Origin: Antedon mediterranea | Taxonomy: Eukaryota; Animalia; Echinodermata | DNA: 64,000 nucleotides | Direction: 5' to 3' | Assembly: GCF_964355755.1 (NCBI RefSeq) | Contig: NC_092677.1 | Span: 1,014,101-1,078,100, forward strand | Shown: piece after piece, positions 27,904 through 64,000 of the stretch | How positions within the stretch are numbered: position 1 is the stretch's first letter | How the letters are laid out: the number at the start of each line of letters is the position of its first letter | The notes under the pieces: generated by a model | The model's database searches: none | The model's input: the letters and a program-made list of their open reading frames with translations, nothing else | Told to the model about the DNA's origin: nothing | Program-made: the position numbers and the translations under genes

Positions 27904-27918
27904 CACCTGTATGCAAAT
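27904..27918 (+). promoter_or_regulatory. Candidate E-box (CACCTG) + octamer (ATGCAAAT) composite upstream of family-B genes
   Basis: CACCTGTATGCAAAT ~750 bp upstream of the B1 ATG; identical at 53043 and in otherwise diverged DNA at 20648. Confidence 0.35.
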
Positions 27919-28149
27919 TACAACATAAAAAGAGAAAGATAATACTACTCATGGATTAATGAATTGCCTATTTATTAATCCATGCACTACTGCAACCATG
28001 GGGATTGTTTCAACTTTCTGAAAAGTTATCATCTTTTAATAATAAAAAAAAAATGAACAGACTGTTAAACAATATAAAAAAATATATACGGAATGAACGT
28101 ATGACGGACAAAGGATTGAAAAAAAACGGAGACATAATACCCAACGAAG

Positions 28150-28313
28150 AAAAACAAGGCCAACAGCCAATACGTCGCGTGCTACAATGCATAGTGATAC
28201 CGGACCGACAGACAGACCGATATACCGACAGACAGACCGATGACAGACCGACAGACAGACCGACCGACCGACCAACATAGAGAACTATAGAGTCGCGTCC
28301 ACGCGACTAAAAA
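28150..28313 (+). mobile_element. Short DINE-1/HINE-like element with (GACA/GACC)n
   Basis: AAAACAAGGCC...AGTCGCGTCCACGCGACTAAAAA; reverse complement of the ends of 10507-11368. Confidence 0.7.
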
Positions 28314-28669
28314 TGATGGTACAGGCATTGATGAACAAAGGCAGAAAAAATACAGAAAACGAAAAAAAAAATACACAAAATGAACAAACGAACACAAAAA
28401 TGAACCAGTGAGAGAACGAAAATATTAATCATTATTTAAATAATACTATTTTCGCATTTAATATCCGTTTTGATTAAAACGCAGGGTTTCTCTGAATTTA
28501 TCCATCATTCAGAGCAAAGCTAAACAAAAATATAATGCCTATCCAAAGGTCATATTATAACAGTTATAATGATCTTTTTTTGTAAATTTGCACCTACAAA
28601 AAAGGTGTAATAGGAACGTGTCGAAGTGGACAAGTGACGATTTTATTAAAGGAGAAAAAGACTTAAAAA

Positions 28670-36200: not shown

Positions 36201-37489
36201 TTCAATTGGGTAAATCTTCAATTACAGTATCTCATGTATGTAGATAAAATTGCCAGAATATTTTTAAAGGGAATGTTTAAAGTTTTACCTTAATAGCCTA
36301 CCAAAATTAGATATCCTGTAACACAGGTCTAAACGCTACAATAGAAGAATGCTACAGTATTCTTCATTTGAATTTTTGAACCTCCTAAATGCTTTTAAAC
36401 CTTAATAGAAAACGTCATATTCAATTTAGTAATTTTTTATTATTAATATTCACACATTCTTATCCATAACTTTATTCACAAACATGATTTTTTTTAATAT
36501 AAAAACTATATATATATCAAATATTTTTTTTTATTAATAATGTATGTTTTTGTTGTTTAGTAATGTATTTTTGTTGTTTAATAATGTATTTTTGTTACAT
36601 TAAAATTGTTTCACTACTGATATAACTTATAACTCTTGTTAGAGGACGTTTTTCTTGTTATAATTACCGGTACGATTTTGTAGACAATATTCTTTGTAAT
36701 TTGCAGATACACACTATTTAAAGGGAAATGTTATTATTGCTTTATGTTAATTGAACTTAACATTTTCGCAGTATGTAATATGTGAATAATTGATTATTAT
36801 CCTATTTATATTATTGTTTCTTAGATTAGTAGTAGGCCTACTTTATTGGTATACATAACACCTGTTTTAAGGTCAACTATTCATTTTTCCAATTGTATAA
36901 GTTAAAACTATTAACTTACTACCAAAGATAAAGCCAAAATATATAGCAAGCACTATCAATACAATCGTTACTGGTATAACAATTCCAACTGTAAAAAATA
37001 ATATAAATTATTAAGTAAAAACAACACGACATAAAATTAACTCTCTTAACTTTTGCTTAACATAACATATATATTTTATGGAAAGGCAAAAAATGTGATG
37101 AAACAACCGACCATACTCTGTGCATTGTATCTTTAATATTTTACACATTACGTCTTATGTATATAATTCATCAATTCTTACGATACATATTTATGTTCAA
37201 TGTTTATTCTCCATAACCAGTATTGCTAAACTAGTTGTTTAAAATAGATGCTCAGCTGAGTAGTTGGTAAACCTTTTATCATAAATTAGTTTTTAACCAA
37301 TTTATATTTTCTGAATAAGACTCACCTATAAGACCAGCACTTCGCCCTTCACTGGGATTATAGACATCACTAGCTGTAATATAAAGTTAAAATATTCTTG
37401 TGAAAACTTGATGCGGTACTAATCAAACGGAAAAAAACCCACAAAAGTTGTTTTATAATAATTATTTTACATTCTGTGTTATAAATGAT

Positions 37490-37733
37490 GATAACGATGA
37501 CAATTTTGAAGTAAATGGAAACTTCAGACATATGGCCATCGTGCATTTTCCTGTGCAGCACCCATTTTGTGGAATAAACTGCCAATCGACATAAAGACAT
37601 CTGAAAACATCTTTCAAAACACGACTAAAACCCATTTTTACACAGAGGCATTTCCTGCTTAACTTTGTCAGGCGCCTTTGAACATTATTTCTATGGATAC
37701 TGGCGCTATATAAATCTGATTGATTGATCGATA
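37490..37733 (+). mobile_element. 3' end of an L2-like LINE (second copy ~62940-63185)
   Basis: Translates YGHRAFSCAAPILWNKLP; tail GCGCCTTTGA..GCGCTATATAAAT then (GATT)n. Confidence 0.7.
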
Positions 37734-37747
37734 TTTGACAAAATTGT

Positions 37748-38475
37748 GCAGCATTAGCAGCAGCATTAGAATTAGCAGTAGCATTAGCATTAGAAGCAGC
37801 AATAGCATTAGCATTAGCAGTAGCATTAGCAACAGCATTAGCATTAGCAGCAGCATTATCAGTAGCAGCATTAGCAGCAGCATTAGCATTAGCAGCAGCA
37901 TTATCAGTAGCATTAACATTAGCAGCAGAATTATCAGTAGCATTAGCAGCAGCATTAGCATTAGCAGCAGCATTATCAGTAGCATTAGCATTAGCAGCAG
38001 CAGCATTAGCAGCAGCATTAGCATTAGCAGCAGCATTATCAGTAGCATTAGCATTAGCAGCAGCATTAGCAGCATTAGCAGCAGCATTAGCATTAGCAGT
38101 AGCAGCAGTAGCAGCAGCATTAGCATTACCAGCAGCATTAGCAGCAGCATTAGCATTAGCAGTAGCATTAGCAGCATCATTAGCAGCAGCATTAGCAGCA
38201 TTATCATTAGCAGCAGCATTAGCAGCAGCATTATCATTAGCAGCAGCATTAGAGCATTAGCAGCAGCATTAGCATTAGCAGCAGCATTATCATTAGCAGC
38301 ATTAGCAGTAGCAGTAGCATTAGCAGTTTCATTAGCATTAGCAGCAGCATTAGCAGCAACATTAGCATTAGCAGCAGCATTAGCATTAGCAGCAGCAGCA
38401 GCAGCAGCATTAGCATTAGCATTAGCATTAGCAGTTTCATTATCATTAGCAGCAGCATTAGCATTAGCAGTAGCA
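37748..38475. repeat. Compound (AGC/ATT)n trinucleotide repeat
   Basis: Directly visible; intronic to I1. Confidence 0.95.
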
Positions 38476-41031: not shown

Positions 41032-41138
41032 ACTTTTTCTCATTCTCACAGATTTCCTCATCTTTATCGTTTCAAATTAATTTATTAAATTTCAGTATAT
41101 CACCGGGCGGTTTAGAATTAATGTTCTGTGCCTGATTT

Positions 41139-41215
<77 letters not shown>

Positions 41216-41244
41216 CAATGATGTTGCGTAGCACTGTGTAAATT

Positions 41245-41590
41245 ATATATAAATCATACTGTAAATTATAGAAACAGTGCTCATATTCGGAACATGATCT
41301 CATAATCGCGTCGAGCATAGCTCATTGGCGAAAGTTCCATATTTTTTAGTTGTATGAAAAAATGTCTCTGGCTGGATTCGAACCTGCAACCTCTCGCTTA
41401 CAGGGCGAGTATCATACCACTAGACTATGATACTCGCCCTGTAAGCGAGAGGTTGCAGGTTCGAATCCAGCCAGAGACATTTTTTCATACAACTAAAAAA
41501 TATGGAACTTTCGCCAATGAGCTATGCTCGACGCGATTATGAGATCATGTTCCGAATATGAGCACTGTTTCTATAATTTACAGTATGATT

Positions 41591-41597
<7 letters not shown>
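41245..41597. mobile_element. Head-to-head palindrome of a tRNA-derived SINE; third truncated copy at 42127-42270
   Basis: ~170-bp inverted arms around a 9-bp spacer CCACTAGAC (41417-41425); arms contain CTCGC-CCTGTAA-GCGAG and B-box GGTTCGAATCC. Confidence 0.85.
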
Positions 41598-41659
<62 letters not shown>

Positions 41660-41688
41660 GTATATATATATATATATGTATATATATG

Positions 41689-41724
<36 letters not shown>

Positions 41725-41817: not shown

Positions 41818-42264
41818 GAATTGTAACAAAGGATAACATATATAAGTCACAAAATTACATAATAAAACAAATCAACCAATCAAAAATGTTAACAAACAAA
41901 AGGCATAGTTATAAAGGCACGCCTCCAAAAGCTATGGTGTACAAAGCAGGAATGGTTGCTTATAAAGCAGGAAATTTAAAACAAAGACAAAAGCTTCAAG
42001 TGTAAATAATAGTTAATATGTGAATGTCTCTGGCAAAATTAATGTTTAAAGGATCTAAATTGTACATTTATGCCGGTAGGGGCAAGAGTGCCAAGCTTTA
42101 CAATTATTCTATATATATATATATATAGGTTGCAGGTTCGAATCCAGCCAGAGACATTTTTTCATATAACTAAAAAATACGGAACTTTCGCCAATGAGCT
42201 ATGCTCGACGCGATTATGAGATCATGTTCCGAATATGAGCACTGTTTCTATAATTTACAGTATG

Positions 42265-42380
<116 letters not shown>

Positions 42381-43629: not shown

Positions 43630-43895
43630 TGTAGTATTAGTAGTAGCAGCAGCAGTAGCAGTAGTAGCAGCAGCAGCAGTAGCAGTAGTAGCAGTTGCAG
43701 TAGTAGTAGCAGTAGCAGCACAGCAGTAGCAGTAGTAGCAGTTGCAGTAGTAACAGCAGTAGCAGTAGTAGCAGTTGCAGTAGTAGTAGCAGTAGCAGCA
43801 GCAGTAGCAGTAGTAGCAGTTGCAGTAGTAGCACAGCAGTAGCAGCACAGCAGTAGCAGTAGCAGCAGCAGCAGCACAGCTGCAGCAGCAGTAGT
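43630..43895. repeat. Compound (AGC/AGT)n repeat
   Basis: Directly visible. Confidence 0.9.
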
Positions 43896-44297
43896 ACGTT
43901 TTTCATCTTAAGAATGATGTTAAAGATAATGGAATGTGTGTGTACTTACAGTCTAGTTTGAGTGAAGCAGTGTTTCTAAGTTTCCCTTGCATTCCACTAT
44001 AAGCAGCATTCTCTGCTCTACACTGGTAATCTCCTTCATCTGATACATTTACTTTATTAATAATTAATGCTGAATCAGAATATGAATATTTGTCTGTATC
44101 AGCCGTATTAAGTATGACGTCACCTTTACACCATATGACGGTAATGGGGGTTGGTACACCATCAAGTGAAGAACACGTAAACATTGCTGTTTCATTTACC
44201 ATCACAGACAGTTCTTGAGGCTCCAAAACTGTAGAACTATTTTCTGTTTCATGTATAAAAAAGTTATGCAAGATGGAATATCCTATCTAATTTGTAG

Positions 44298-47200
44298 TTG
44301 TAAGTGTGTATACTCGAACTAATGTGACAGTGAGTCCTGCTACATTCAATGTTGGTGAAGATGCAACAATGACGTGTACATATACACTTGAACCAGGAGA
44401 TGTGTTAGCTGGGTTAGCATGGTTCAAAGCAAATGGAATTGGAAATCAAGATGGGTCAGTACTTGTATCTACGGGAAGTACAGTCAGTGGTCGATACAGT
44501 TTATCCAGTAATAACCGTGATCTTATCATTACTAATGTTGAAGTCAGTGATGCTGGGAACTACTTGTGTAGAATTACATTGGATGTTACCTTTGCTAATG
44601 TTGAAGATTTTGAAATGATGTCAGTTGATTGTAAATAAACATTCCAACCAAATTACTTAATTATCTCAATATTTATTTTTTAAATAATTTTGATATTGAA
44701 AATGTGTGTAGTTGGTCGCTTTCTTGTAGACGCTTTTATTGTAGAACGTAATTTATTTATTTTTTCTCTGTTCTGGGTTGACCAACTAGCATAGGTGTTT
44801 AGCACCTGTTTGGTCTTTCCGTGCCTCCTTTTCTAATTGATTTGTCTTCTTTGTTTATGTATATGGCAAATTGAATAAATAAATTCATTAAATATTATTT
44901 ACTACATACTCTTACTTAATGAATGTATTAATAAATGTTACCCTATTAATTTAATTTATTATTTATTATAACATTTATTTTATTTTTATGTTTTTTTATA
45001 TCAAAGGTTAAATTATATGATTTCTATTTATTCAAACAATAACCAGCTTGTGCTACTCAACAAAGTTTCTGATGTACATATACTTCAATACTTCAATATA
45101 TAATTCAATAATTTCCCTCATCAAGTTGTTTTTACCAAAAAAAAGAAGAAAAGGTAGATGAAAAAGACCGAATAAATTGGAAGATCAGTAAAACATTTTA
45201 TAGTATGATACAGTACGGTACATTATATCTTATTACAGATATTAATGGTAGTCTTGCAATTGCTGTAAACTCTAATACCACAGCAGAGGATGTTATCATC
45301 ACATGTACTGGTATTGTAGATGGAGACCCAGTTCCTGAACTAAACCTGTATAGAGATAACAATATAATTAAAACACAGAGTACATTACCTCTAACATACA
45401 CAATAGCTACTGTGGCAGAGAATGATGGAGGAATCTATAGATGTGAAGCAAACAATACTGCTGGAACTGTGACAAGTAATACAATACAGTTTCATTACTG
45501 TAAGTGTGTTCAGTTTTGGTAAAGTTAGTTTCCTTTCATGTTGCGTTATTATCTATAAGAATGAGTTATCATGATTTAATTTGAAAAAAAAAACCCTGTC
45601 TTAATGTCATTTAAACAAAATTGTTCTGCAAATGACAACTTCCCCCGGGGAAGACATGACGTGTCTTTGCCCATATTTTCTCATCTTTTTCTAGTTAAAT
45701 AGATTCAATTATTTTATTTTGAACTAATAGCGTTTCACTTCATAGCAGTATAATCAACATATGTTGTTTTAAGGTGTTGATTATACATTGTTTAATGGTC
45801 GCTCCCGAGTATCAATGTTCTTCAGAACGTTAATTCCAAGAGTGCTAGACTAGTACAGTACTAGTATATTAAATATGTCTGTTGCATATTTTATTTGAAC
45901 AAAAATGCAACAATGTTTACATAATTCCTCGTATACGTATGATCATGAATTTATGTCAATTTTTATCTCTTATTCATCTTTGTTAGCAAACTAATTGTAT
46001 TGGTAGGATGTTTAATTACATGAATTAATTCATTTAAAGTGGCTTAGGTTCTATCCTGGCCTAACTTATTTTTATTATTTTATGTTTTTCTGTACGTAGC
46101 TGTTGTGAAAACCACAGTGTTGTTTTTAGTAATTAGTAAAGGATAATTATATCCTTTATTTATTTTGTAGATTTAAACGATATTGTTACAATTAGTTATA
46201 CTTCTAACAATACTACTATCGTAGTCACGTGTTCATGTTCAATTTATGGTAATCCATCTCCTGGTATAAACCTTCACAAAGATGATGATATCATTCTGCA
46301 ACAATCTACATTACCTTTAATATACCCAATAAGCAGTCCAACAGAGAATGATGGAGGATATTACACATGTGAAGCTCATAACACAGCTTTCTCTACAAGA
46401 GTATTAGAATTGTGTAAGTATAAAATACAAACTTTACTTGATAAAGAACGTATCTAAACAGCAAATTCACAATTGATTTAAAATCTCTATCTTTAAAGAG
46501 TCTTGAAAAATTGAAATTCTGAAATAGGCCGATGAAAAAATGGATTTAAAGTTTCACAAATACAAAATTAGTTGACAGAATGAATTAAACAACTGTTTCA
46601 AAGTAAATTTTTGATATAAATGATATATTTTCAGATAAACCAAGATATGAGACAACAGAACCAGGTACTCTTAAACCTGGAGAACAGGGTACGATTACAA
46701 TGGAAATTGTTGAAGCCAACCCTCAAGAGGTGAATTATGTTTGGAGCATCGACGGTGTTGTGGATCCAGATGCAAATTCTGCACCATTCCAGGGGCGCAG
46801 CCAGCAAAGGATTAAAGAGGGGGTCAACCAATATGTGAGTATTTTGCGAGCGAAGCGAGCAACCATGGGCTGGGGGCCAGGGGGCCGCCAAGGGCCCTTG
46901 GTTGGGGTCCAGGGGGCGAAGCCCCCTGGAAGCTTTGGCGGTCTAGGGCAATCTAGATCATTTGAATCGGTTTACGCACACACAAATATGACAATGTTAA
47001 CACTAAAAAACTGTAACAAAGAAAACAAAAAACAACTCTCATTTTCATTACAGAACATTTTTATATTCCAGGCTGCCACAGACAAACACTTTTTTTCTTG
47101 CTTGTTTGTTGATTTGTGTAGAGAGGCTGTAAACTCAGAGGAGGAATTATTTGAATTCCTCCCTTTTCACCAATACAAAAGTTGCATGAAATGAACGTAG

Positions 47201-50016
47201 AGATGCAAAAGTTTGAAAAAAGAAATTAGAATGATAGCATGGAGGGAGTGATATTATTAAATGAGAACCGTAAGGTTAGAGTTCATACACTGTGCAAGTC
47301 CAAGAAGCTATCTTAGCTCCGTGTTTATGTGAGACGCTTATCATACCCAGTACATACAATATTTTGTTTAAAAATATACCTATTTTGTTCGAATGTATAG
47401 TATAGGTGATAGCTTATACATAATTGTAATAACTAACTTCTAAATTATTATCATACATTTTACGTTAGTTACTATAACGGCGCTCTTGACATCGCGTGAT
47501 GCATCTTTAAACATAAGTTTGGAACATACATTCTTCTTGGCTTGGAGACAGAATTCGCGAATGACATTCTCTGTATTAATGTTCATGTTAAAGTGTATGT
47601 TCATGAGGCACAATCCCAAAAGCTGCTCATAAGACATGTGATTTCCCAAACAGGTTTTTTTCTCCATAAAGTCGAAAAACTCAGACGTTACGGGCATAGG
47701 CCTACGCGATTAGAAGAAGTGCACGCACATTCGGGAACACATCTGGATCCGCTAATTTTACACAGTCGCTTCCATCACTGAAGCTCGGAATGAAGATGTT
47801 CGTGTCTTGGCAGATCATCGTACCAAATTCAAGTTCCTTGAAGACTTCTTCAACATTACACTTCACTATAGACTCGGGTGCTACGCCAAATATTTTAAAG
47901 CATGGCCTGTTATCGGCAGAAAAACGGGTTTTTAACTCGGTTTGTAATCAAGAAGTTGATTTGGTAATACTGCTCGGTAGTAATCTTCCACAGTATCTCC
48001 AGGATGATTTGATCTGTATTGTTGTCTCATGTTTTTATTTATTTTTTCTAAAAAAAAGGGGGGGTCAGGACCCCCGTGACCCCCCCACTGGCTGCGCCCC
48101 TGCATTCACATTCACTGCATCAATGGAAGTTGGCACAGTTCATGAAATAACACTAATTGCTACTAATCTCATTGGATCAACTGCAGAGACAATACGGATC
48201 ACTGTCTCAGGTGTTGATTCATTTGTTTTTTTATTTTAAGAGCATATTATCATGCACCGAACAAAAACAAAAAGTCATTTAATATATCTATTTTACTCTA
48301 ATTTATCAAATCTCTGTGTGTCTGTCCGACTTTATTCAGAGACTAGAGGTCGCTAGGTCAATGTAAAATCTCAACATTCTCAAATTAGGAGCGGTATAAA
48401 GTCAAATTCTTTATTCATCCCACCTGGGGCAATTTCAAAAACAGGACTGAACAATATATAAAAAAGTACTGTATATAGTAAATCATTATAACACAATCAT
48501 CAATCATTTAAACACAACACCTTAAATCTATAACATCTCTTATTCAAAAGGCCCTAGATCAAATAATTTTATTTTTTCGTGACACATAGGACTCCGGTAC
48601 CGATATGCATACAGAGATAACAACCAATTCCATCTATCATGCATTGCTCAATTAAAAATATGTATTATAACTTTGACATTTTAGTTGTATTAAAGATGTA
48701 TTGTTCCCTTGAAAAATTAATTGAAAAAAAACATGTTTTGGTTGAAAATGCCATTTAAATGTCACATAATAGTTATTCACTTTCATAAAAAATTGGATCG
48801 AAAACAATATTTACCTGAAAAAACTGTAAAGAAATAGTCAAATTGGATGTCAGTCAATTGGTTTTTGGTTGAATTTAACCATTTATTTTGTCATTTTATA
48901 AGCGACAACATAATTTTGTTCGTTTTTTTCTATGAAAGTGATTAACTATAATAAATGGCCTATACTTTATTAATCTTCATTTTGCATGTTTTCTGGAGGA
49001 CAATATAAATATATATAAATCGTCATTCACATTAAAATTCGGTATAATTTTAGTTTCGTACATTGTAAATAAAGTGTACATTAATTTCCAGTAGAAAGAA
49101 AACGTAGGGCTTAGAAATATCGTAGGTTTGGTCATTGGAATGCTCTTTCTTGGTACCATCATTGGCTCCTTTGGACTTTATATTGGACAAATTATTTACA
49201 ACAAGATAAGGAAAGTTTGTTAGATTATTTATTAATACTTTACTTTATTGTTTTTATAATGCTAAAACATGCATGTTATACAAAGTAATAATAAGGGCCA
49301 TATTGATTTTTAACTACCAGCAGTATATCAAAAGATTTTGAATTACTTTACAACATGTTAGGATGTTGGTTATTTTAGTTTTCATGAACGCAATCCGTTT
49401 TCGAGAAAAGATGAGGTTATTGGAAAAGGGTATTTTATAAATAGTCTACATTGAATAAAACGAATTCACCTCATTTTCCATTGAAATATTATTGAAATAC
49501 ATACAATATTGAAAGTCTTATGGGATGACAATAGAGTAATGAAATATTAATTAATCTATTTAGAAGTCACTGTCAGAGAAACAAGACAAAGACAAAGGGA
49601 AACAAGATGTAAGTATTGAATACAATCTATAAAGACGATCAACAAAACGGTTTAATTGGTAGAACCATTGAAGAGAAAATATTTCTTTTTTCATTAACGG
49701 CAAAATGGACAATTAAAACTTAAATAGACTTAATGTCTAATTTGATTCTGATTAAACGTAAGTCTACGTTTACAATTCCAAATTATTGTATTAAGAGTTT
49801 AGTACAATTCCTTTATTTACCACAAGAAATAATGGTTTCTGATTTAAGTTAACAATTATTTTCTTTTTTTAACAGACTTAGGCCTACATGGATTATGTAG
49901 TAGACACTAGCCAGCAAAATCAAACCTATCAAGATTTACAATGCAGGCCTAACGAACAAGAATCAGCTTATGTTAATGTTAAGGCTGGAAATAAGAAGAA
50001 CAAAGGGAAAATATGA
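44298..50016 (+). pseudogene. IgSF receptor A5: divergent V-set, two C2/I-set, transposon-split third-type domain, TM, ITAM-like tail; no leader exon found
   Basis: Exons 44298-44630, 45239-45499, 46171-46413, 46635-48210 (hAT inserted at 46790), ~49126-49214, 49564-49608, 49876/49882-50016 (ACT TAG GCC TAC; YQDL-x10-YVNV). Confidence 0.8.
46790..48102 (-). mobile_element. Internally deleted hAT-like DNA transposon inside an A5 exon
   Basis: 15-bp TIR CAGGGGCGCAGCCAG/CTGGCTGCGCCCCTG; apparent 5-bp TSD CATTC; minus ORF 47440-47697 (PVTS..KT.L..MS.E.L.GL.LMNIH) resembles the hAT C-terminal dimerisation region. Confidence 0.85.
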
Positions 50017-50381
50017 ACAAGAAACAGCTTATACTTGCTTGATACTTGCTTGATGTTATGGGTCGGTTAGAAAGCATAACATTATGTTAATGTTATGGCT
50101 GGAAATAAGAAAAAGAAAGCGAAAATATGAACAACGCTAAGAGGATCGTTCTACTGTACATCTATATAAGTACATTATGCGCACACACACGTTTATAGAA
50201 ATTAAATTATTTAATTAATATTATTTAACTACCATTGGTGGAAGTCAAAATAATTTGTTTTCAATTAATATATGCAGACTAACGTTCATTGTGATATTAT
50301 GTTATATCAGCTAATGATAGACCTTTGAACTCTTTATTGAGTCAATTATATTCTGTAATAACACATCGGTAATTATATTAA

Positions 50382-51881
50382 CTAGATGGCACGCTCGCTT
50401 CGCTCGCGTACCATCTAGGTCGTGCCCACAGATGGTTCTCGAATACACAGTATTTCCAGCGAGAAAAAAATGGAGATTTCAAATGTACGTACCGCAGGAC
50501 TATGAATACATTGTCGTTTACAGAAACGAATAAATATACACAATGATTTATGTAGTCAACCAAAATTAGCACCCTGGGGATTACTTCCGAGAGAGAAACA
50601 AATTGAGTCAAATTTTTTTATTTGGACTCATTTAAACAAACCCAATTTGTGTTTTGTATGTAACATTAAGGGTTGAGGGATGGGGGAAGAAGATGGGTAC
50701 AAAGAGGAAACATTTTAAAATATATTCTTATCCACTCAGTAACGAAATATTGTTTTTAATGTTTTATAGGCCTATAAATAATATACCACTAAATACAGTA
50801 AAACATTTACGATTTAATACGGTACTTTGTTAAAACTCTCACTGTCATAGTCGATTGAAATAGTAAAGTACATGTAACGATACACCACTACGACGTTTAT
50901 ATATTTTTAAATTATTAATTAATACAAACGTTGAGAAGCAACTGTCAGTAATAACGTTTATTTATTTGTATATTATATGTTTATAATCTAACAGTAGGGC
51001 CTACCCACACTCACAGTAATAAAGTTTATTTGTATATATTTTTGTGGTTAATACCTTAACAGTATTGTACAGCATTGCAATACTATTTATGTTTATTCTC
51101 CAAGGGGGCCCATAAATCTAAATCTAAATCTATACCTCTATGGTTAAACCAAATAATTTGGAATGTTTATTTGTATATTATATGTTTATAATCTAACAGT
51201 AGGGCCTACCTATACTCACAGTAATAAAGTTTATTTGTATATATTTTTATATTACATCTAACAGTACCAACACTCACAGTAAGAAATTTGCGATTCAAAT
51301 TGCGATCAAAAGTGGTTAATACCTCAACAGTATTGTACAGTATTGCAATACTATTTATGTTTATTCTCCAAGGGGGCCCATAAATCTAAATCTATACCTG
51401 TATGGTTAAACCAAATAATTTGGAATGTTCCATTCATCACAAATCAATACATTTGTAAAAACGTATATTAAATGTATCAAAATAGTATTTTTTAAAGAAA
51501 ATCGGCCTGTCTTCAACATTATGATGCTGTACTCGAACTGTTCAACCGGTTTTCAGCTATTAAAAACAATTATCGTAGGAGGAGATAGGAAAATGCGAAG
51601 CCTCCTCGCATTTTTGTGGCGGGTATTTTTCAAGATGGACATCCATTAGACAGTGTATACCACGATCGGAAAACACCCCTATTTGGGGCAAATCGTTGAA
51701 CCTAAATTCGCTTTAATCGTCAATAACTAATTATCTAACTTAATTTAATTAGTAAACAGGGTTACATCAGGTGGTTAAAATCAGTACCGAAAGTACGAAC
51801 CAACTTTATATACCATCGAGTAAAAATTCTAGAAGTAAGGCGCGATTTACCGAATTTTGCCCTTACGTAAATTTATATAGA
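50382..51881 (-). mobile_element. Non-autonomous Helitron, 1.5 kb
   Basis: Absent from copy A (26686). On the minus strand it starts TC, ends CTAG, sits between A and T with no TSD, and has a terminal hairpin CTAGATGGTACGC..GCGTGCCATCTAG. Confidence 0.9.
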
Positions 51882-53286
51882 TTGTCTTGTTTCATACTAT
51901 TACAATTCTACATCGAAGCAAGTGTGTCACTCACGTTTTGTAAATACTACAAAGGATCATTCATGCAGTAGGTTTTATATATAATATATTTGGTAAGCTG
52001 AAAACCTCTATTATACCAATATTGTTAGGCCTATTTATATAGAAAACTAAACGGAAACGTATCGACTTAGGTATACTAAGGACGATACTGTCCCTGTAAG
52101 GGACAATTATCTACATATTCTGTTTATGTGAATAATAATCTATGTTAGTTTTTAGTCAACTTGAGTAAATTCTGTAGTACTTCTGAAATGTTTGTTAATT
52201 TTGGTGTTTCTAGTTTTCGTAAATTTATGCGTAAGTCTATTTATAGTTTTTTGTTACGTATTAATATATCTAATAATAATAATAATATGATTGTGAAAGT
52301 TGTGAGTGATAAACTGCTTGCGGAAACTCATTTATATATTTAAATATGCCATAAAAAGCAGAATGGTTTATACATCGAGAAAATAGTGTTAATGTTAATA
52401 TAAAGATTTATAATAAATAAATATTTATATATAGTTATAATATAAATAAATGTAATCTGGTATTACATATAGGCCTGCATACAAATAGCCTACTGTATTT
52501 GTTTATGCACCCAGGACAACGTATCTGACTACGAGTTTGACGACTAATGTCAAATTACCATGACTAAAGATTGGTTTGCCATTCTAAACAAAGATGTGAC
52601 GGGTAGTAACACATTCTGTGCTCATAAACTGTTCTATAAAGCCACATAATAGAAAGTTAACAAGGCCAATATACATGGCTCAATTTAGTGTTTACCTACC
52701 GGCCGACCAACCGACCGACATAGTGAGCTGTAGAGTCGCGTTGCACGCGACTAAAAACGAAACAGAAATGGGAAATAATTATGCGAACAGTAGAAGCGGT
52801 TTAACCTTATCATAAATCAATGAAGATCTACGTTCCACCATAAACGAAATGATCATCAGTAAATGACCATATCCTGTATAATACATTAATATAATAAATG
52901 ATTATTTACCTCAACCATCAATGTTAGTACTGCATGTCACTTTTCTATTGAGTAAAGGCCTATACGTGTGCCTTAAGTAAACGATTGCATGTGATTAGAA
53001 CCACAGATAGCAACAAACACAATACCACCAATAGTCCGTGCTCACCTGTATGCAAATTACAACATAAAATGAAAAAGATAATACTACTCATGGATTAATG
53101 AATTGCCTATTTATTAATCCCTGCACTACTGCAACCATGGGGATTGTTTCAACTTTCTGAAAAGTTATCATCTTTTAATAATAAAAAAAATGAACAGACG
53201 GTTAAACAATATAAAAAAAAATATACGGAATGAACGTATGACGGACACAGGATTAAAAAAAAACGGAGACATAATACCCAACAAAG

Positions 53287-53450
53287 AAAAACAAGGCCAA
53301 CAGCCAATAAGTCGCGTGCTACAATGCATAGTGATACCGGACCGACAGACAGACCGATATACCGACAGACAGACCGATGACAGACCGACAGACAGACCGA
53401 CCGACCGACCAACATAGTGAACTATAGAGTCGCGTCCACGCGACTAAAAA
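53287..53450 (+). mobile_element. DINE-1/HINE-like element (duplicate of 28150-28313)
   Basis: Same termini and microsatellite. Confidence 0.7.
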
Positions 53451-53808
53451 TGATGGTACAGGCATTGATGAACAAAGGCAGAAAAATTACAGAAAACGAA
53501 AAAAAAAATACACAAAATGAACAAACGAACACAAAAATGAACCAGTGAGAGAACGAAAATATTAATCATTATTTAAATAATACTATTTTCGCATTTAATA
53601 TCCGTTTTGGTTAAAACGCAGGGTTTCTCTGAATTTATCCATCATTCAGAGCAAAGCTAAACAAAAAATATAAGGCCTATCCAAAGTTCATATTATAACA
53701 GTTATAATGATCTTTTTTTTGTAAATTTGCACTTACAGAAAAGGTGTAATAGGAACGTGTCGAAGTGGACAAGTGACGATTTTATTAAAGGCGAAAAAGA
53801 CTTAAAAA

Positions 53809-56800
53809 ATGTACATTGTCTTCGTGTTGTCCTGTATAATCTCAGCTGTTGGTAAGTACCACAGTAATAACAACAACTAACGTATTCCATTATTCTTAGT
53901 ATTCTTAAATTTTAAAGCAATGTGTTTATTATGATTAAGAATTTCAGTCTAGAATTTATACTGACATTAAATAAACAAATAAGGATAAATTTAACCTAAT
54001 CAATTAAACAAATAATATCATCAGGATATCCAATCATTATCGTTTGCTAGTTGCCGTACAACAGCTTACTTTTAAGCTTGGTTCCCATCAGAAAACGCAA
54101 GGACGTGGCACAATGTATCGACAGAATTTTTAGTGGGAACCAAGCTTCATGACCAAGTGCATGATTCCGATGTCATCCTTAAGCTTGGTTCCTAATAGAA
54201 GCGCAACGCAAGGACGTAAGCACAACGTAAGTAATTTGACCAATCATACTTTTGCTATAATATAATATAAAGAAAGAATTCATAAAGTAATAAACTGAAT
54301 ATCTTCTTTTTAAGAAAAATAAATGTATAAATAATCATATTAGAAAAACACTATCGCTTTTTGATGATGAACAACTCTAAAATGTATATAGGAAATGTTT
54401 TTTTTATTTTGTATCTATTATGCTTATTGTATTATGTTTTTTATGTAAAAGGGTCCTGCGAAAACAGAAGTGTAAATTTCTCTATGCAGGATCCTTGCCA
54501 TCATTTATGCTATGAAACTATATTTATAAAGGATGAGTAAATAAATGAATTGAATTGAATGGATTATGTGAACTTTCGCTTGTGATTGGTCAACTTGCTT
54601 GCGTTGCGTCTACGTCCTTGCGTTGCGTCTCTAGTGGGAACCAAGCTTTATGGTTCACCATTTACACTGCCTTCGCTGTTGTTGTCACAATCATTATTTT
54701 CATTTTAAAATTGATATTGTTATGAATACCAATATTTTACCTTGTCATTGACCATAGTACCCTTGACTGTTGCGCTAGAGGTTACAATAAGTGATGTGCA
54801 AGAATTTACCGAGAATTTAGACGCGTTACTGGCTTGCGACTACACACCAACCAGTGCAACGGGCGTTGATATATCGTGGACACGAGTTAATGCACAGAGC
54901 GACATTATTAATTTAGTAGTACGAAGTGAAGTGGTTGATGAATTCAAACCACGTATGGAACTCCAGGCTTCTGATAATTTCCAGGGTAACGGTGGTTTAA
55001 CAATTCATAATGTCACTAGAGAGGATGCTATGTATTATGTGTGTGCAGTATTCTCCACTAGTGATGGTCAAGAACAAGGAATAACTAGTTTACAGGTACA
55101 ATGTAAGTATTATCAATGACCAATGAATACTAAACTGGTATTTTACAAACCGTGAAAACACAGTAGTACTGTAAAGAATCTTTAACCTAATATTTGATAA
55201 TACTTGGATTATAACATTTATAAGTGTGTAAACGGAAGAAACGGAACCATTTTATTATATCATGCGTCACGACTTATCAGACCACTATAATCCTCTATTA
55301 TTATAACATGCGTCACGACTTATCAGACCACTATAATCATCTATTATATCATGCGTCACGACTTATCAGACCACTATAATCATCTATTATATCATGCGTC
55401 ACGACTTATCAGACCACTATAATCATCTATTTTTATTATCAGGAATGCTGATTCTATCTTTTTTGTCTACATCATTGAAACTATTTTTGATAACTGATAA
55501 TGTAGTTTAATTGTTTTGAAAATACTTAATAACTTTTATTTGTTGCCTTAACGCAATTGTGCTTGTTTAAAAGTTGCATATTCACACAGTCGTCAATTGT
55601 TTTTTTTTTTCAGGGAATTACAAGCCACAAATTACAAGTGATCCAGCTCCATATTCTTTGCAAGTTGGTGACAACGTAACATTTACGTGTTTATCTGAAG
55701 CCAATCCTACATCAAAAATAGCATGGTTGAAGAACAACGTTACCATCGACATGGATGACAGATTCACAAAGAACGAGAATGCATCTACTCTGCACATAGA
55801 TGGTTTAACTCGAGATGATCACGCCCTCTTTAGTTGTAGTTCAAGAAACATTCGAAAGGAAATCTTGAGTGATCAGATTGAACTAAATATAGAATGTAAG
55901 TGCAGTATACAAAGTAAAACATAATTTATTGTAACCATGTAAATCCTGCAGACACTGAAGACATTTACATGGCACTAAAAAATCTTTAAAAAAACAAACC
56001 AATCATTGTCATTGAAGAACAAGATATTGCATGTTCTATTAATCTATGAGATTAAGCTCTAATCCATTCTATTTGGTATTCAATCTATAAATCAAAAACT
56101 AAATAAAGAAATTAGTAAATACGATAAAAACTACTCATTCTAAACATTAAAATATCACTATCCGTCCCATAGCTATAAATGAATAGTTTGTATTTTTGTT
56201 ATCTCCGGAAGATCAATAATATTGGCTGTTTAACTATGCTAATGCATGCTTGCTTTATACCAGATGATCCGCCGTTGAATAATTCCAGATATAATAAAGC
56301 GAAGGTAATTTCCAAAAAGACAGATGCTTCAATTACAATTATTATTTCATTTGATTTCATTTATTGTTTTCGACAAAACGTTCGGGACTTTGAAAGGGAA
56401 GTTCCAGCATACAAATTACAAATATTTATTAACATGATGAAGATACATGTTTTAATAGATGAGCCAGAGATGTATTTGAACCAGACAGGCAACACAGTTG
56501 AATGCACCAGTGACGCGAATCCAGCAGTGTATCAGTACGAGTTTGAAGTAGACGGTAAAGTAGTGAGGACAGCCGACGCAGTGTACGAATTGAAGGGAAC
56601 TGAATGTGTTAATATCACGTGCTTTGGTACTAACAAAATAGGAACAGGCAACGCATCGGATATCGTGTGTCCTCTGTGTAAGTTTATACTGCCTTGGTTC
56701 TAAGTATCATTTAGTATCTACATTCTATTGGCCTAGATTCCAATTCTAATCGACGGCTACTCGATATTGATTAATTAAATTTAATCTTCTTATTTATAAG

Positions 56801-58726
56801 CAAATACTAAATACATAGATAAAACATTATTCAGAGTGTAAACGGAACAATGTTATTATTGCACTTGCACCACCTGATTGATCAGACTGTTATAATCATT
56901 TATTATTGTACTGAATGCCAATTCTATCCTTTTTATCTTCATTATTTTAAGTAGCTGTTAATGCTTTTGTTTGTTTGTTGCTTGTCAGTTGCTTCAAAAC
57001 ACAATTATGCTAGTTTAAAAGTTGCGTTCACACAGTCTTCAATTGCATTTTTAGGGAATTACAAGCCACAAATTACAAGTGATCCAGCTCCAGATTCTTT
57101 GCAAGTTGGTGACAACGTAACATTTACGTGTTTATCTGATGCCAATCCTACATCAGAAATAGCATGGTTGAGGAACAACGTTACCATCATAGAGATGGAT
57201 GACAGATTCACAAGGAACGACAATACATCTATTCTTCACATAGATGGTTTGACTCGAGATGATCACGCCCTCTATGGTTGTAGTTCAAGAAACATTCTAA
57301 AGGAAATCTTGAGTGATCAGATTGAACTAAATATAGAATGTAAGTGCAGTGTAGTAAAACATATTGTAACCAAGATAAGGTATATGAATTGAAAGGAGCT
57401 CATGAATGCGTTAATATCACGTGTTTTGGTACTAACAAAATAGGAACGAATAACGCATCGGGTATCCGTGTCCTAAATGTAAGTTGATAGGCCTCTATTG
57501 GTTCACATTTAGAATTTAAAGATTCTATAGATTCCAAATCCAATCAACGGTTAATATTAATTAACTAGCCTTAAAGCCCTTTTGGCTTATTTATGTTTCT
57601 CCGGCATAAGTGCATTCTACATAAAAAATTAACTGTCATGTTATTTCACAATGATGTATCTTATGAAAATAAAATTGAATTGATTTGAATTATTTCGTTA
57701 TTATTATATAATAAATAATTTATTATGTTTTATTATTTATTATTATTATATTATATTTATTAAATTTTTATTTACTTTTTGGAAGAAGTGGGAGAGGGGT
57801 TAGTTAGAAAGTATATCGAAATCAAAAATTCTGAAAATATAAATATTGTTATTATTATTAACTGGCAATTTGTTTTTATACTTCCATGTAGGAAATATTT
57901 TTACCGTTTGTCAGATAAATTAAAAAAAAGGTGTATATGTATGTATGTTAGCTTAGGTCTACTTATAAAAAAAGTAGTATAGTATAAACACTGGCCTAAC
58001 AATATTTTTTTTTCGGCAGGTGAATGTCTAACTGTTGAATGGCCGACAGTTTATCCAGAGCAAACAGTAGAAACATTGAGTTGGAAGACAAGACTGGTCA
58101 TCGTGAATGTTTGTGTTGGAATGCTAATTGGTGCCATTGTAATGTGTATTGGAATGTTTGTCTATAACAGATGTTATATAAGAGGTTTGTCGCTTTATAT
58201 TTAGACGTATTTTGGTAACACGTCAATGTTTATTTTAAAACATTCATGTCTCATGTGAAAGGTAGATACATAATTCACTCCCATGTTTACACAAATGTTT
58301 ACTAAATAATTGTGTTTGTTACTATTCTGTTGGTATTTGATATATTTTATTACCTAGATACATTTTGTCTTTATTTTTAGAAAACACGAAAACGAAAAAA
58401 CAAGACGTAAGTGTTAAAATATTGACTATTGATTTTTTTTATAAATAATTGCCAACAAAGAAAAAAAATAATCATGTTGATTTTAATTGGAGAAGGTTAG
58501 AAACGTATACCTTTGAATATTGACAAAACAAAACAACAAGGAAGTTTCCGTGAATATTATTTATGGCTCAGCCTGCTAGCCTATTATTATTTATAATAAT
58601 GACATTTGAACTTTCGTATTTATCTTGCAGATGTATATGAATTCCATAGTAAACGACTCCGACAAAGACCATTATGACGACTTACAAAACAAATTAGAAA
58701 TGCCGGCTTATCACAGTGTTTATTAG
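53809..58726 (+). CDS. IgSF type-I receptor B2 (paralogue or allele of B1) with shortened tail
   Basis: Exons 53809-53851, 54758-55102, 55614-55895, 56459-56677, 57055-57339, 58020-58184, 58381-58406, 58631-58726; an extra T at ~58721 ends the tail at YDDL-x8-YHSVY*. Confidence 0.85.
54247..54560 (+). mobile_element. ~310-bp LINE 3' end inserted in a MITE (MITE pair 54074-54648)
   Basis: Absent in copy A; TATGTAAAAGGGTCCT..TATGCAGGATCC matches the LINE 3' UTR at 1621-1675; (GAATT)n tail. Confidence 0.75.
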
Positions 58727-60615
58727 TATGATACAAAGTTCTGTCTACAAAAATGTGTGATGTGCCCAAATATGGTAGTAATATACTTAAATAATATGGT
58801 AGTGATATGACATCATCATGTCCATATGGGCACATCACATACAGTTTTATATGTAGACAGAGCATTAGAAAATACGGTAATACAATACAAAGCTTTAAAA
58901 AATAAAAATAAAATGAAGGAAGGTATCACTACATAATCTAGATATCCTCAAGTTGATACACTTAAATTGTATATATTACTATAAGTGGCATGTTTAAGTA
59001 TATCTGTACCAGTAAGAATGAGTCACGTCGTCGGTATTCAGTTGAAGAATACGACTTTTAAAAGCCCATTGTTGGTTTTATAATTATATTACAAAGTTTG
59101 TTACAGATTGCACAATACTTTGCAAAATATTTAACTTCCTTGTAGGGATGTACTAAACATTTTGTACACACCAGCGAAATTGAATGAACAAGGAGTGAAA
59201 TATTTCAGTTTTATTTCTTCTTTGATGAAGAAGTTTCATATTTTGCATATTCAATCAACTTTTTCTTAAATGATTTTTCTGATATGTTCACATCTGCTTA
59301 CAAAATAATTATGAATAACGACTATATTGAAGCAAGAACGAACGTAAACCATGGAGGTATAAAAATATGCGTAAACCGAACCCAGTACCATTTTGATTTA
59401 ATTCATGAAACTACCTCGTGCCATTATTCAGATATATTGACAGTTTTGATTGATATTCACATGAAAATAATATTGAATTAGCAAAAAAAAACATAACATA
59501 AACATGTGGAGGTAGTCATGTTTACTGCAGTAAAATAGGCCTTTTTGCAGTAAGTATGTATCATCATTTGTTGCTGCTACTTAGGGATGTATACCGCAAC
59601 ATGATTGATCATATTTCAATATTGATTTAATGTACACAGCAACACGGTAGACATTGTAACGATTGTTAATCTCATTTATTTATACAAGTAAAAAAAAACA
59701 CATACATGGTTTAGATTTGAGGGGTTAGTTAAAACACAATCAGATCACGACAAGAAAACCAAACTTCTAGGTTTCAGTTAGTAAAATTAGTTTACATTAA
59801 TTAAAGTTTGGTTTAAAAAAAATACAAGTAAACACTGAAAATTGTTAGTAACCTTATTACATAATTCAATTATGTAAAAAAATAATGATGAGTTAAAAAT
59901 TGAAGCTTAATATTCTTCTAATATTTCATTATACTTACTTACATGTCAGACCATGAAGATAACAGCATTTATGTCTTATGTGAGTTTTAAACAAAATTAT
60001 AAGCATGCACTAGATAAAAAAACAAAGCAAAGGAGATATAGTTATAAAACAAAGAACATTATGTTATTGATACAAAACATAGGCTAAGATATAAAATGTA
60101 ACATTGTAAATTCTAATCATTAATTCGTATTGTATAATTTTTAATTTCTATATAATATATTTTGTTGATAATATCTACCAAATGTATTAACTATAATGTC
60201 AGTCATTATACCATAGTGTAAAAATTAAATTTGTATGTACAAATTTAATCGAAATACCGAAAACTAACCTACTAAAATTACGCTAACATTAATGTTACAT
60301 TGTCATTATTGTTTAATGACCGTATATTTATATATGACTTTACTAATTATGATCATTTGTACATCAAAACATTATACTTTGTGACAACTCTATTACAATA
60401 ATTATGAATTCCTGTCCATTTTGTATACTCATAAAATGTCATGTGTTGGAATTTACTTTAATTTTACATTTTAATTTCAAACTGAGTAAATGAAATTGAA
60501 ATCCAATCTAAAAAATAGAAATAATAAATTCCATCTAGAGAAGGGAGCCCTCATTCAGAATGATAAATTCTTGTGATCTTTCAGGGGTCTGCTAAATATT
60601 CTACGAACCCTAGAA

Positions 60616-62824
60616 TCAAATGTCACTCTGGACGCTTGAATACTGTGTCTCTGGTTTTGTGCGAATATTTTCATCCTGTTTACCAGGATTGTTAAGATCC
60701 AGCTCAGCATATGCCAGTTGCTCTACGTTCTACATCAAGCAAATAGTACAATTTAAATATTATTATGATCCTAATTATAAATATTTTCAGTATTGTTTAG
60801 GTCGAATGTTTGATGGGCGGCGTTATTGGAAAAACCGTTGTTGATGCCAAGAATTTGTTAAAATTACACGTCTTTACTTACAGCCCCAGATTTCTTTGAA
60901 TCACTTGGTTTCGGCTTTTGGACGTATGCAGTACCATAACCACCAGTTAAACCTATTAATTCAGAGGTGTCTTTTGTGGTTATTACATTTCCAGCGGAGG
61001 TCCTAACCAAGTAAATGAAATTACATGAAATGGAATTATGTGATAATAATGTATGTGCAATTACTAGTAAATTATAGAATGAGTGCATAATAATTAATAA
61101 AAATACAGTACAGTATTTACATTTTGTTACCTGTGTTTTTTTTTTATAATAATACTTACACCCTCTCACTGAAACAATATTTTTTTCCTGTAAGAAGAAA
61201 TAGCAAAAAAAAAAAAAAAGTTTTGGCGAGAGGAAAAACTATATTTGACAATTCTGCTTTTATTTTCTATGGAATGGAGAGATTGTTTTCTTATATTCAG
61301 TAATTCATTAATTATAATTTCCTGTTATTCGTTTCACGGGAACGTCTCTTCTCAGTTAGGGGTGTACACTGAATAGGGGTGTCCTACATAGTTTAATGGT
61401 ACTGAGGTATAAGAAGCCCACTCATAATTATTTAGAATACATTTTACGAAAGGAACTACTTCACTACTACTAGGTTAGGTTCACACCCAAAACATTACTT
61501 ATCATTTTTATTAAAGGTGTTTGTGGAAAGCCGATTTATGATTGGTTTTTTGAATGGGATACATTTTAACTGAATTACTTTTTCTTATTATATTCTATGA
61601 GATAATTATTCTAAAAAAAATATTGAAAAGGATAGTTTTCAATTGGGTAAATCTTCAATTACAGTATCTCATGTATGTAGATAAAATTGCCAGAATATTT
61701 TTAAAGGGAATGTTTAAAGTTTTACGTTAATAGCCTACCAAAATTAGATATCCTGTAACACAGGCCTAAAAGGCTACAATAAAAGAATGCTACAGTATTC
61801 TTCATTTGAATTTTTGAACCTCCTAAATGCTTTTAAACCTAATAGAAAACGTCATATTCAATTTAGTAATTTTTTGTTATTAATATTCACACATTCTTAT
61901 CAATAACTTTATTCACAAACATGATTTTTTTAAATATAAAAACTATATATATATCAAATATTTTTTTTATTAATAATGTATGTTTTTGTTGTTTAGTAAT
62001 GTATTTTTGTTGTTTAATAATGTATTTTTGTTACATTAAAATTGTTTCACTACTGATATAACTTATAACTCTTGTTAGAGGACGTTTTTCTCGTTATAAT
62101 TACCGGTACGATTTTGTAGACAATATTCTTTGTAATTTGCAGATACACACTATTTAAAGGGAAATGTTATTATTGCTTTATGTTAATTGAACTTAACATT
62201 TTCGCAGTATGTAATACGTGAATAATTGATTATTATCCTATTTATATTATTGTTTCTTAGATTAGTAGTAGGCCTACTTTATTGGTATACATGACACCTG
62301 TTTTAAGGTCAACTATTCATTTTTCCAATTGTATAAGTTAAAACTATTAACTTACTACCAAAGATAAAGCCAAAATATAGGCCTATAGCAAGCACTATCA
62401 ATACAATCGTTACTGGTATAACAATTCCAACTGTAAAAAATAATATAAATTATTAAGTAAAAACAACACGACATTATGTGTATAAAATTAACTCTCTTAA
62501 CTTTTGCTTAACATAACATATATATTTTATGGAAAGGCAAAAAATGTGATGAAACAACCGACCATACTCTGTGCATTGTATCTTTAATATTTTACACATT
62601 ACGTCTTATGTATATAATTCATCAATTCTTACGATACATATTTATGTTCAATGTTTATTCTCCATAACCAGTATTGCTAAACTAGTTGTTTGAAATAGAT
62701 GCTCAGCTGAGTAGTTGGTAAACGTTTTATCATAAATTAGTTTTTAACCAATTTATATTTTCTGAATAAGACTCACCTATAAGATCAGCACTTTGCCCAT
62801 CACTGGGATTATAGACATCACTAG
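60616..62824 (-). CDS. Inhibitory-type receptor I2, 3' part (stalk, TM, ITIM+ITSM tail); ectodomain exons beyond the window
   Basis: Minus exons 62824-62777, 62430-62356, 61187-61160, 61002-60882, 60729-60616; phases 1-1,1-1,1-2,2-0,0 all join. Protein ..VGIVIPVTIVLIVLAIGLYFGFIFGRKKYC..NVEQLAYAELDLNNPGKQDENIRTKPETQYSSVQSDI*. Confidence 0.85.
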
Positions 62825-63201
62825 CTGTAATATAAAGTTAAAATATTCTTGTGAAAACTTTATGCGGTACTAATCAAACGGAAAAAAAACCCCACAAAAG
62901 TTGTTTTATAATAATTATTTTACATTCTGTGTTATAAATGATGATAACGATGACAATGTTGAAGTGAATGGAAACTTCAGACATATGGCCATCGTGCATT
63001 TTCTTGTGCAGCACCCATTTTGTGGAATAAACTGCCAATCGACATAAAGACATCTGAAAACATCTTTCAAAACACGACTAAAACCCATTTTTACACAGAG
63101 GCATTTCCTGCTTAACTTTGTCAAGCGCCTTTGAACATTATTTCTATGGATACTGGCGCTATATAAATCTGATTGATTGATTGATATTTGACAAAATTGT
63201 G

Positions 63202-64000
63202 CAGCATTAGCAGCAGCATTAGAATTAGCAGTAGCATTAGCATTAGAAGCAGCAATAGCATTAGCATTAGCAGTAGCATTAGCAACAGCATTAGCATTAG
63301 CAGCAGCATTATCAGTAGCAGCATTAGCAGCAGCATTAGCATTAGCAGCAGCATTATCAGTAGCATTAGCATTAGCAGCAGCATTATCAGTAGCATTAGC
63401 AGCAGCATTAGCAGCAGCATTAGCAGCAGCATTAGCATTAGCAGTAGCATTAGCAACAGCATTAGCATTAGCAGCAGCATTATCAGTAGCAGCATTAGCA
63501 GCAGCATTAGCATTAGCAGCAGCATTATCAGTAGCATTAGCATTAGCAGCAGCATTATCAGTAGCATTAGCAGCAGCATTAGCATTAGCAGCAGCATTAT
63601 CAGTAGCATTAGCATTAGCAGCAGCAGCATTAGCAGCAGCATTAGCATTAGCAGCAGCATTATCAGTAGCATTAGCATTAGCAGCAGCATTAGCAGCAGC
63701 ATTAGCAGCAGCATTAGCATTAGCAGTAGCATTAGCAACAGCATTAGCATTAGAAGCAGCATTATCAGTAGCATTAGCAGCAGAATTAGTATTAGCAGCA
63801 GCAGCATTAGCAGCAGCAGCATTAGCATTAGCAGCAGCATTAGCAGCAGCATTAGCATTAGCAGTAGCATTAGCAACATCATTAGCAGCAGCATTAGCAG
63901 CATTATCATTAGCAGCAGCATTAGAGCATTAGCAGAAGCATTAGCAGTAGCATTAGCAGCAGCATTATCATTAGCAGCAGCATTAGAGCATTAGCAGCAG
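63202..64000. repeat. Compound (AGC/ATT)n repeat, longer than in copy A
   Basis: Directly visible. Confidence 0.95.

Follow-up and report, generated by a model that had tools for sequence, protein, structure and literature searches.

The end of a minus-strand gene at positions 60616-62824 of a 64,000-nt stretch of the genome of the crinoid Antedon mediterranea (NCBI RefSeq assembly GCF_964355755.1, contig NC_092677.1; the whole stretch analyzed is called the window below) raises the question of whether a series of very small exons encodes the tail of an inhibitory receptor, and to which kind of receptor such a tail would belong. A first-pass annotation had read these exons as a hidden gene with a Siglec/PD-1-like tail carrying an ITIM and an ITSM. 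The reading favored here is that the five exons probably form the stalk, membrane helix and tail of an Antedon Ig-superfamily receptor, likely with a V-V-I-set ectodomain, of the predicted inhibitory class of a clustered paired-type family. Established for this gene, referred to as copy B, are its exons and reading frame, splice joints that are exact at two introns, a connection with an I-set exon, the retention of the tyrosines in a paralogue and the existence of two tail classes in the family.

Copy B consists of a stalk exon (62824-62777, 48 nt, phase 1-1, CAG/GTGAGT borders), a transmembrane exon (62430-62356, 75 nt) whose helix has no charged residue, a juxtamembrane exon (61187-61160, 28 nt) with a basic RKK stop-transfer sequence, a tail exon (61002-60882, 121 nt) that holds TAYVQK, and a last coding exon (60729-60616, 114 nt) that ends in TGA and holds both LAYAEL (60717-60700) and TQYSSV (60648-60631), all on the minus strand. 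These five exons had been proposed to join in phase, and their borders are indeed AG/GT throughout, with five of five acceptors reading CAG or TAG after pyrimidine-rich tracts and four of four donors reading GTAAGT or GTGAGT. The joined translation is stop-free over 127 residues and displays the order foreseen by the first-pass annotation, namely a 15-residue stalk, a hydrophobic helix (Kyte-Doolittle mean 3.06, residues 14-32), RKK and an 87-residue tail that ends in S-D-I. Two of the five tail tyrosines fit the motifs, with 17 residues between LAYAEL and TQYSSV, at a distance of 55-80 residues from the membrane. The last exon is absent from the list of minus-strand open reading frames (at least 80 aa), as had been noticed, because it has only 37 codons and is preceded by an in-frame TAG. 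Use of another frame for 60729-60616 had been named as a finding that would refute the proposal; the spliced frame is the motif frame, and the other two, which lack tyrosines, run into a stop after only 1 and 7 codons. Searched against Pfam and, at E values up to 10, against PDB chains, the last exon gave no match. The window as a whole has the composition of AT-rich animal DNA (25-41% GC).

LAYAEL, behind the membrane helix, conforms to the ITIM consensus (I/V/L/S-x-Y-x-x-L/V) and TQYSSV downstream to the ITSM consensus (T-x-Y-x-x-V/I), and this layout agrees with the definitions in the part of the source drawn on here (PMC13358205). When the tail of copy B was shuffled 200,000 times, an ITIM appeared in 18.5% of the shuffles, an ITIM followed by an ITSM in 0.29%, and the pair with 15-30 residues between the motif starts in 0.096%. 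In six-frame translations of the block-shuffled 64-kb window (n = 100), the motif pair occurred 1.05 times per shuffle on average and at least once in 62 of 100 shuffles, compared with one occurrence in the real window, and the raw-DNA count was discarded as evidence. The motif pair is thus unsurprising in raw DNA and surprising as a spliced last exon behind a membrane helix, so that the case rests on splicing and conservation.

Splicing was checked in contigs of four of the five public runs that contain the stretch, no run being recorded as RNA; for one of the four, X1, RNA status is the guess of the tool. In X1, intron 60730-60881 is skipped exactly at GT..AG (joint 60729/60882, depth 62), as is intron 61003-61159 (joint 61002/61160, depth 21), which places exact joints on both sides of the tail exon. 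A third joint, 62378/62786, has imprecise ends with unplaced letters between them, and joint 61187/62356 is absent from the joints listed, giving two of four introns exact and one imprecise. The other three runs, from one sample, cover the introns and have none of the X1 joints. An X1 contig covers 62786-62821 of the stalk exon, and its loose end behind 62821 matches a single place in the window (43947-43976); of the 3 mismatches, two fall at the intron start, and no such match was obtained in 100 shuffles. Since this loose end is the end of an Ig I-set exon, the I-set exon is joined straight to the stalk exon, with phase 1 on both sides. In the X1 tail three residues depart from those encoded in the window (Y72D, Q108R and N111I); all three changes lie outside both motifs, and one of them removes another tyrosine. 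A probable 3' untranslated region (59000-60615, minus strand) is suggested by an X1 depth of 42-90 over 59000-61054 that drops to 0-25 in the upstream introns, the contigs themselves giving no strand or end; AATAAA occurs in it at 59680 and 59215. A second X1 contig (60700-60911, depth 27) reads through the last intron, 60730-60881, and could derive from DNA, from unspliced RNA or from a retained-intron form, which, if it is an mRNA, would stop five residues on without ITIM or ITSM and would resemble the retained-intron variants of Botryllus FcoR.

The Ig I-set exon identified by this join lies at 43950-44228 on the minus strand, upstream of a second copy of the gene end (copy A, see below); it is 279 nt long, in phase 1-1, and scores 47.6 bits against Pfam I-set (cut-off 23.7). 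A protein search with it returned 5 matches among 48 candidates, all crinoid, the best being the A. mediterranea protein XP_071958664.1 (P0004) at 97% identity. The match begins at residue 251 of P0004, the exon being shorter than the P0004 form by about five codons at its 5' end. P0004 consists of a signal peptide, two V domains (V1 and V2) and an I-set domain, and its last 40 residues match the translation, across two frames, of the window intron after 43950; the RefSeq model therefore reads through into an intron and has neither membrane helix nor tail. The introns behind the I-set exon contain GCT/AAT tandem repeats (37748-38475, 43631-43894 and 63201-64000) with long spurious frames, one of which supplies the end of XP_071958664.1; on the same ground, the Ala/Asn and Leu/Met frames, also long, at 63.1-64.0 kb are not regarded as exons. 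Filed as 'amalgam-like' without helix or tail, XP_071958664.1 would escape a search of echinoderm proteomes for such motifs. The fourth exon (40 residues), used as a protein query, gave 0 matches among 11 candidates, a weak hint that the tail of copy B is unannotated in protein records. The V1 and V2 domains of P0004 likely belong to the copy B gene, as judged from the RNA join and from how the duplicate is arranged. The predicted structure of P0004 (AlphaFold) shows three Ig folds with a mean pLDDT of 69.7 and a pTM of 0.45, V1 being weak.

This ectodomain separates the two halves of the Siglec/PD-1 comparison: the likeness stands for the ITIM and ITSM layout of the tail and fails for the ectodomain, which has the V-V-I-set order of a crinoid family. 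No Siglec or PD-1 chain was among the listed matches of three structure-database searches (best 60 of 111, best 41 of at least 500 and best 60 of 169). The order of domains in P0004 is not that of Siglecs, and Ig_CD22 reached 18.6 bits, below its cut-off of 27, on the second domain. Siglecs deviate from the ordinary B-F cysteine pairing, and P0004 V1 has an ordinary pair (C46 and C118); V1 also carries an arginine after the F-strand cysteine (YQCR), at a place tentatively comparable with Siglecs. The single IgV domain of PD-1 and the CD28 family is likewise not found, an I-set exon being spliced to the stalk, and the host, by the 97% match to P0004, is a crinoid and not a jawed vertebrate. PD-1 was accordingly discarded as the identity of the gene, and the tie to Siglecs lies only in the tail.

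Conservation was examined from the P0004 ectodomain, a search with which found 12 proteins among 2594 candidates; with isoforms, 21 family proteins were compared. ITIM plus ITSM tails occur in two of the 21, both isoforms of one gene (P0017 = XP_071958243.1, and P0022), with VTYAQV followed by LTYVEV-x17-TTYSSV; P0021, a third isoform of this gene, has a 13-residue tail. The last exon of copy B is identical to the end of P0017 at 18 of 34 positions, and from stalk to stop the two share 54 identical residues in 114 columns. The tails align with z = 18.3 (0 of 1000 shuffles), compared with z values of -1.0 to 0.9 for five ITAM-like tails. TAYVQK in the tail exon aligns with VTYAQV, the first ITIM of P0017, its consensus being lost in copy B. 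A lack of conservation of the tyrosines had also been named as a refuting observation; both are kept with the same 17-residue spacing, in one paralogous gene of one genus. No ITIM plus ITSM tail was found among 8 Anneissia proteins.

The first-pass annotation described the five-exon gene correctly and overlooked its surroundings, namely copy A with its Ig exon inside the window and a series of ITAM-like neighbors. At least six plus-strand Ig receptor genes are present (7960-19000, 22800-26440, 29270-33260, 44290-50020 and 54715-58760); their exons are of V and C2/I type, their membrane helices are rich in Gly and uncharged, and their tails contain tyrosines. A PKD-like exon type occurs in some of them and also in P0016. 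Their last exons read YQDL-x8-YVNV at 13917-14045, 18844-18980 and 26307-26436, YQDL-x10-YVNV at 49877-50020, and YDDL-x8-YHSV at 33131-33260 (with a third tyrosine in YKNV) and at 58630-58760 (ends approximate), the latter gene being convergent with copy B and a duplicate of the 33.1-kb gene. Near a duplication border, at 49930-50130, part of the end of a plus-strand last exon is repeated behind it, with a second YVNV-coding stretch past the stop, and at 46790-48100 an insertion of about 1.3 kb splits a plus-strand exon that is whole in its paralogues at 12058-12340 and 24821-25094. The window tails thus comprise six of the YxxL-x8/10-YxxV type, four of them with YVNV, and two minus-strand copies of the ITIM/ITSM type. 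The V1-type domains of the neighbors are 61-65% identical to P0004 V1.

The same two classes recur among the 21 family proteins, and both are present in A. mediterranea: two proteins (one gene) have ITIM plus ITSM, nine (five genes, two of them in Anneissia japonica) have ITAM-like tails, and ten belong to neither class, most of these being models that lack a helix or have a short tail. The loose ITIM consensus is also fitted, at the second tyrosine, by five of the nine ITAM-like proteins and five of the six window tails. YxN is a Grb2-binding pattern, and from it and the tandem YxxL..YxxV layout the ITAM-like tails are predicted to be activating. Closely linked genes with similar ectodomains and two tail classes, as in paired families, are found in the window. 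A canonical ITAM, also expected of an activating member, was found in none of the 21 proteins and none of the six window tails (the last residue is V and the spacing 8-10), nor was a charged residue found within any of the six neighbor membrane helices. Of the surroundings of copy B, these ITAM-like neighbors are the more telling part.

P0017, with its ITIM/ITSM tail, and P0013 (XP_071959085.1), with an ITAM-like tail, agree at 98 of 99 positions in the V domain and at 78 of 96 in the I-set domain, and their tails are unrelated. Trees were made for the V domains (20 rows) and the I-set domains (15 rows) of 14 of the 21 proteins plus the window exons, with isoforms and the two-unit model P0005 excluded; the group tested, P0004 plus P0017, had been set beforehand by tail class. 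Both trees group P0017 with P0013, and the P0004 plus P0017 clade was rejected (p-AU 0.0003 for V and 2.6e-35 for I-set). Homologous tails on non-sister ectodomains indicate a putative exchange of exons between ITIM/ITSM and ITAM-like genes. P0013 and P0017 are automatic RefSeq models that could be mis-joined. For the copy B gene itself, no near-identical activating twin was found among the family proteins compared, its domains being at most 55-66% identical to paralogues.

Another explanation is a receptor for adhesion or guidance (JAM/CAR-, NCAM- or PZR-like) whose tyrosine pair recruits SHP2 as a positive junctional scaffold, with no immune role. The best ectodomain matches among the solved structures listed are indeed the adhesion molecules NCAM, LRIG1, titin, Dscam and Robo, although the Foldseek matches to the P0004 model (NCAM, LRIG1, titin and Dscam; best 41 of at least 500) are generic Ig matches at no more than 23% identity, and the matches listed for a V1 profile include TCR V-alpha, TIM-3, pIgR and CEA, all with comparably modest scores (best 60 of 169). 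The only Pfam families above cut-off in P0004, P0013 and P0017 are Ig families. Some family members are named amalgam-like or junctional adhesion molecule B-like in RefSeq, and the S-D-I tail end fits the class I PDZ ligand consensus, but this PDZ-like end is not retained in P0017, and conserved adhesion genes do not typically show rapid tandem duplication, two classes of tail or an exchange of exons. An adhesion role is consequently considered unlikely.

A further explanation concerns the locus itself, since copy B could be a 3' fragment left as an orphan, or a haplotype that was falsely duplicated, with the transcript derived from another copy. Positions 29114-38473 are repeated at 54559-64000 with 95.6% identity, as part of a larger duplicated unit (26388-38473 and 50082-64000, about 96% identity, offset about 25.4 kb) in which a plus-strand ITAM-like gene and a minus-strand ITIM/ITSM gene are carried together and which could be either a recent tandem duplication or a product of falsely duplicated haplotypes. 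Copy A has the same five exons at 35146-37373 on the minus strand, truncated and frameshifted: a 6-nt in-frame deletion affects the membrane exon, and one extra base at 35243 leads to a stop at residue 96, before the ITIM. Run X5 has the deletion as well, whereas none of the four contigs that cover 35243 shows the extra base among the indels listed, contigs being prone to drop rare variants. Copy A is likely a truncated pseudogene because its I-set exon lacks the 5' codons, a plus-strand V exon starts about 60 bases from it and the 64-kb window contains no minus-strand V exon. The junction at 44228-44330, where the 5'-truncated minus-strand I-set exon and a plus-strand V2-type exon stand back-to-back with no room for a signal exon, may be an inversion breakpoint or a misassembly. 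Copies A and B are about 1% apart (4 of 380 exon and 18 of 1812 intron positions), and a comparison of exon with intron divergence for signs of selection was dropped, the differences being too few. That copy A is broken and so close to copy B, that the upstream exons of copy B lie outside the window, and that the X1 transcript agrees with copy A at 62799, 60885 and 60569 and has other, private letters would all be in keeping with an orphan copy B; on the other side, the frame of copy B is open and its splice sites are intact throughout, and four contigs that cover the ITIM, one per run, show no gap against it. An orphan or false copy is therefore regarded as quite improbable, and even if it were true the biology would stand, since an intact expressed version exists. 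Other repeats in the window include an inverted repeat of about 360 bases (6124-6486 and 6965-7318) whose arms are 94% identical and separated by 480 bases, possibly the remnant of a DNA transposon, fragments that by eye resemble LINE-type reverse transcriptase (842-1582 on the plus and 3150-4431 on the minus strand), and a repeated element, some 250 bases long, that carries tRNA-like internal motifs and occurs in both orientations next to long TA runs (41138-41700 and 42127-42379), possibly a SINE.

Least probable, and very much so, are unphosphorylated sorting signals for the endocytosis of a scavenging or uptake receptor, since YAEL and YSSV both fit the Yxx-hydrophobic sorting pattern but lie 55-80 residues from the membrane and have kept in the paralogue the L or T two residues before each tyrosine and the 17-residue spacing, which sorting does not need.

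For an inhibitory-class receptor of a paired-type family, ligand binding would lead a Src-family kinase to phosphorylate the tyrosines of LAYAEL and TQYSSV, and the phosphotyrosine pair would bind the tandem SH2 domains of a SHP phosphatase, or SHIP. Such recruitment would damp the signals of the ITAM-like sisters; for their YxxL-x8/10-YxNV tails, the expected binding partners would be a Syk-type kinase and Grb2. The V domains of the family may recognize self or microbial ligands, and the family would evolve by duplication and by exchange of ectodomain exons between tail classes. Crinoid SHP, SHIP and Syk are presumed present by analogy with Hydractinia, where four SHP homologues, SHIP, Syk and Shark are described (PMC9546547, in part), and Botryllus, where SHP-1, SHIP, Syk and Grb2 are expressed (PMC12582321, in part). 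An amphioxus ITIM receptor in Jurkat cells gave inhibition that depended on the ITIM and its tyrosine, and bound SHIP1 more than SHP1/2 (part of PMC8211107).

A broader proposal, held tentatively and at somewhat less than even chances, is that crinoids independently built a true paired immune-receptor system, i.e., a tandem cluster of inhibitory (ITIM plus ITSM) and activating (ITAM-like, Grb2-binding) Ig receptors whose V exons are swapped by gene conversion, an activating decoy copying the inhibitory binding site as in Siglec-5/14 and CEACAM1/28 of mammals. If true, it would be the first described in an echinoderm, as far as the literature searched. Echinoderm immunity is known mainly for expanded pattern receptors. 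The locus would bridge the gap between cnidarian Alr and tunicate FcoR, would add the sharper, vertebrate-style mark of a V domain nearly identical between opposite tail classes, and allows a test of whether the arms race between inhibitory receptors and activating decoys is pre-chordate or convergent. No ITIM/ITAM Ig-receptor cluster of crinoids or other echinoderms was found in the openly accessible literature searched, and crinoid genome papers may list the genes; the consulted part of an invertebrate IgSF review holds no echinoderm case (PMC11999971). Receptor pairing in invertebrates has been noted (PMC2413239, in part), and ITIM/ITAM Ig clusters are already known from Hydractinia and Botryllus (parts of PMC9546547 and PMC12582321).

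As described in the parts of the sources drawn on here, several known systems resemble the crinoid family to different degrees. CD33-related Siglecs carry, like copy B, an ITIM and then an ITSM at the tail end, have an N-terminal V-set, and include opposing pairs with almost identical V domains (Siglec-5/14 and -11/16); unlike the crinoid protein with two V domains and an I-set, they have one sialic-acid-binding V-set followed by C2-sets, and they activate through a charged membrane residue and DAP12, whereas the neighbor helices here are uncharged (PMC13358205, PMC6829431). PD-1 shares with copy B the stalk, helix, ITIM and then ITSM, but has a single V domain, belongs to the CD28 family and is confined to jawed vertebrates (PMC11599192). 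The Alr family of Hydractinia is, like the crinoid one, a large tandem family of V-set and I-set receptors with many ITAMs and few ITIMs; it differs in the partial absence of the canonical Ig cysteines, an added Fn3-like fold and strict ITAMs, and neither an ITIM plus ITSM pair nor a near-identical opposing pair is described in that part of the source (PMC9546547). FcoR of Botryllus, also from an invertebrate deuterostome, comprises clustered IgV type I receptors with ITIM or activating-type motifs and with tail variants that arise by intron retention, and its core-2 motif [A/D]VYxxV resembles AVYVNV of P0013, but it has a sushi domain, fester partners, hemITAMs and a genetic tie to allorecognition (PMC12582321, PMC12065747). 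Neither the sushi region of FcoR nor the Fn3-like region of Alr is present in the crinoid protein, where Pfam finds only Ig domains in P0004 and the I-set meets the 15-residue stalk directly; crinoids are also not colonial, and their family is known here from sequence alone. The closest analogue of the crinoid family is the dog pair CEACAM1 (ITIM) and CEACAM28 (ITAM), which are likewise clustered Ig receptors with opposing motifs in their own tails (PMC2110893). No orthology is implied. The dog pair is mammalian, with gene conversion shown on genomic DNA and expression shown in immune cells (PMC2110893), whereas for the crinoid genes, seen as sequence, both would be predictions and the activating tails are no more than ITAM-like. 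The degree of sharing is nonetheless similar, at 98% for the N-terminal domain and 86-88% for the next one in the dog pair, compared with 99% and 81% for P0017 and P0013 (PMC2110893).
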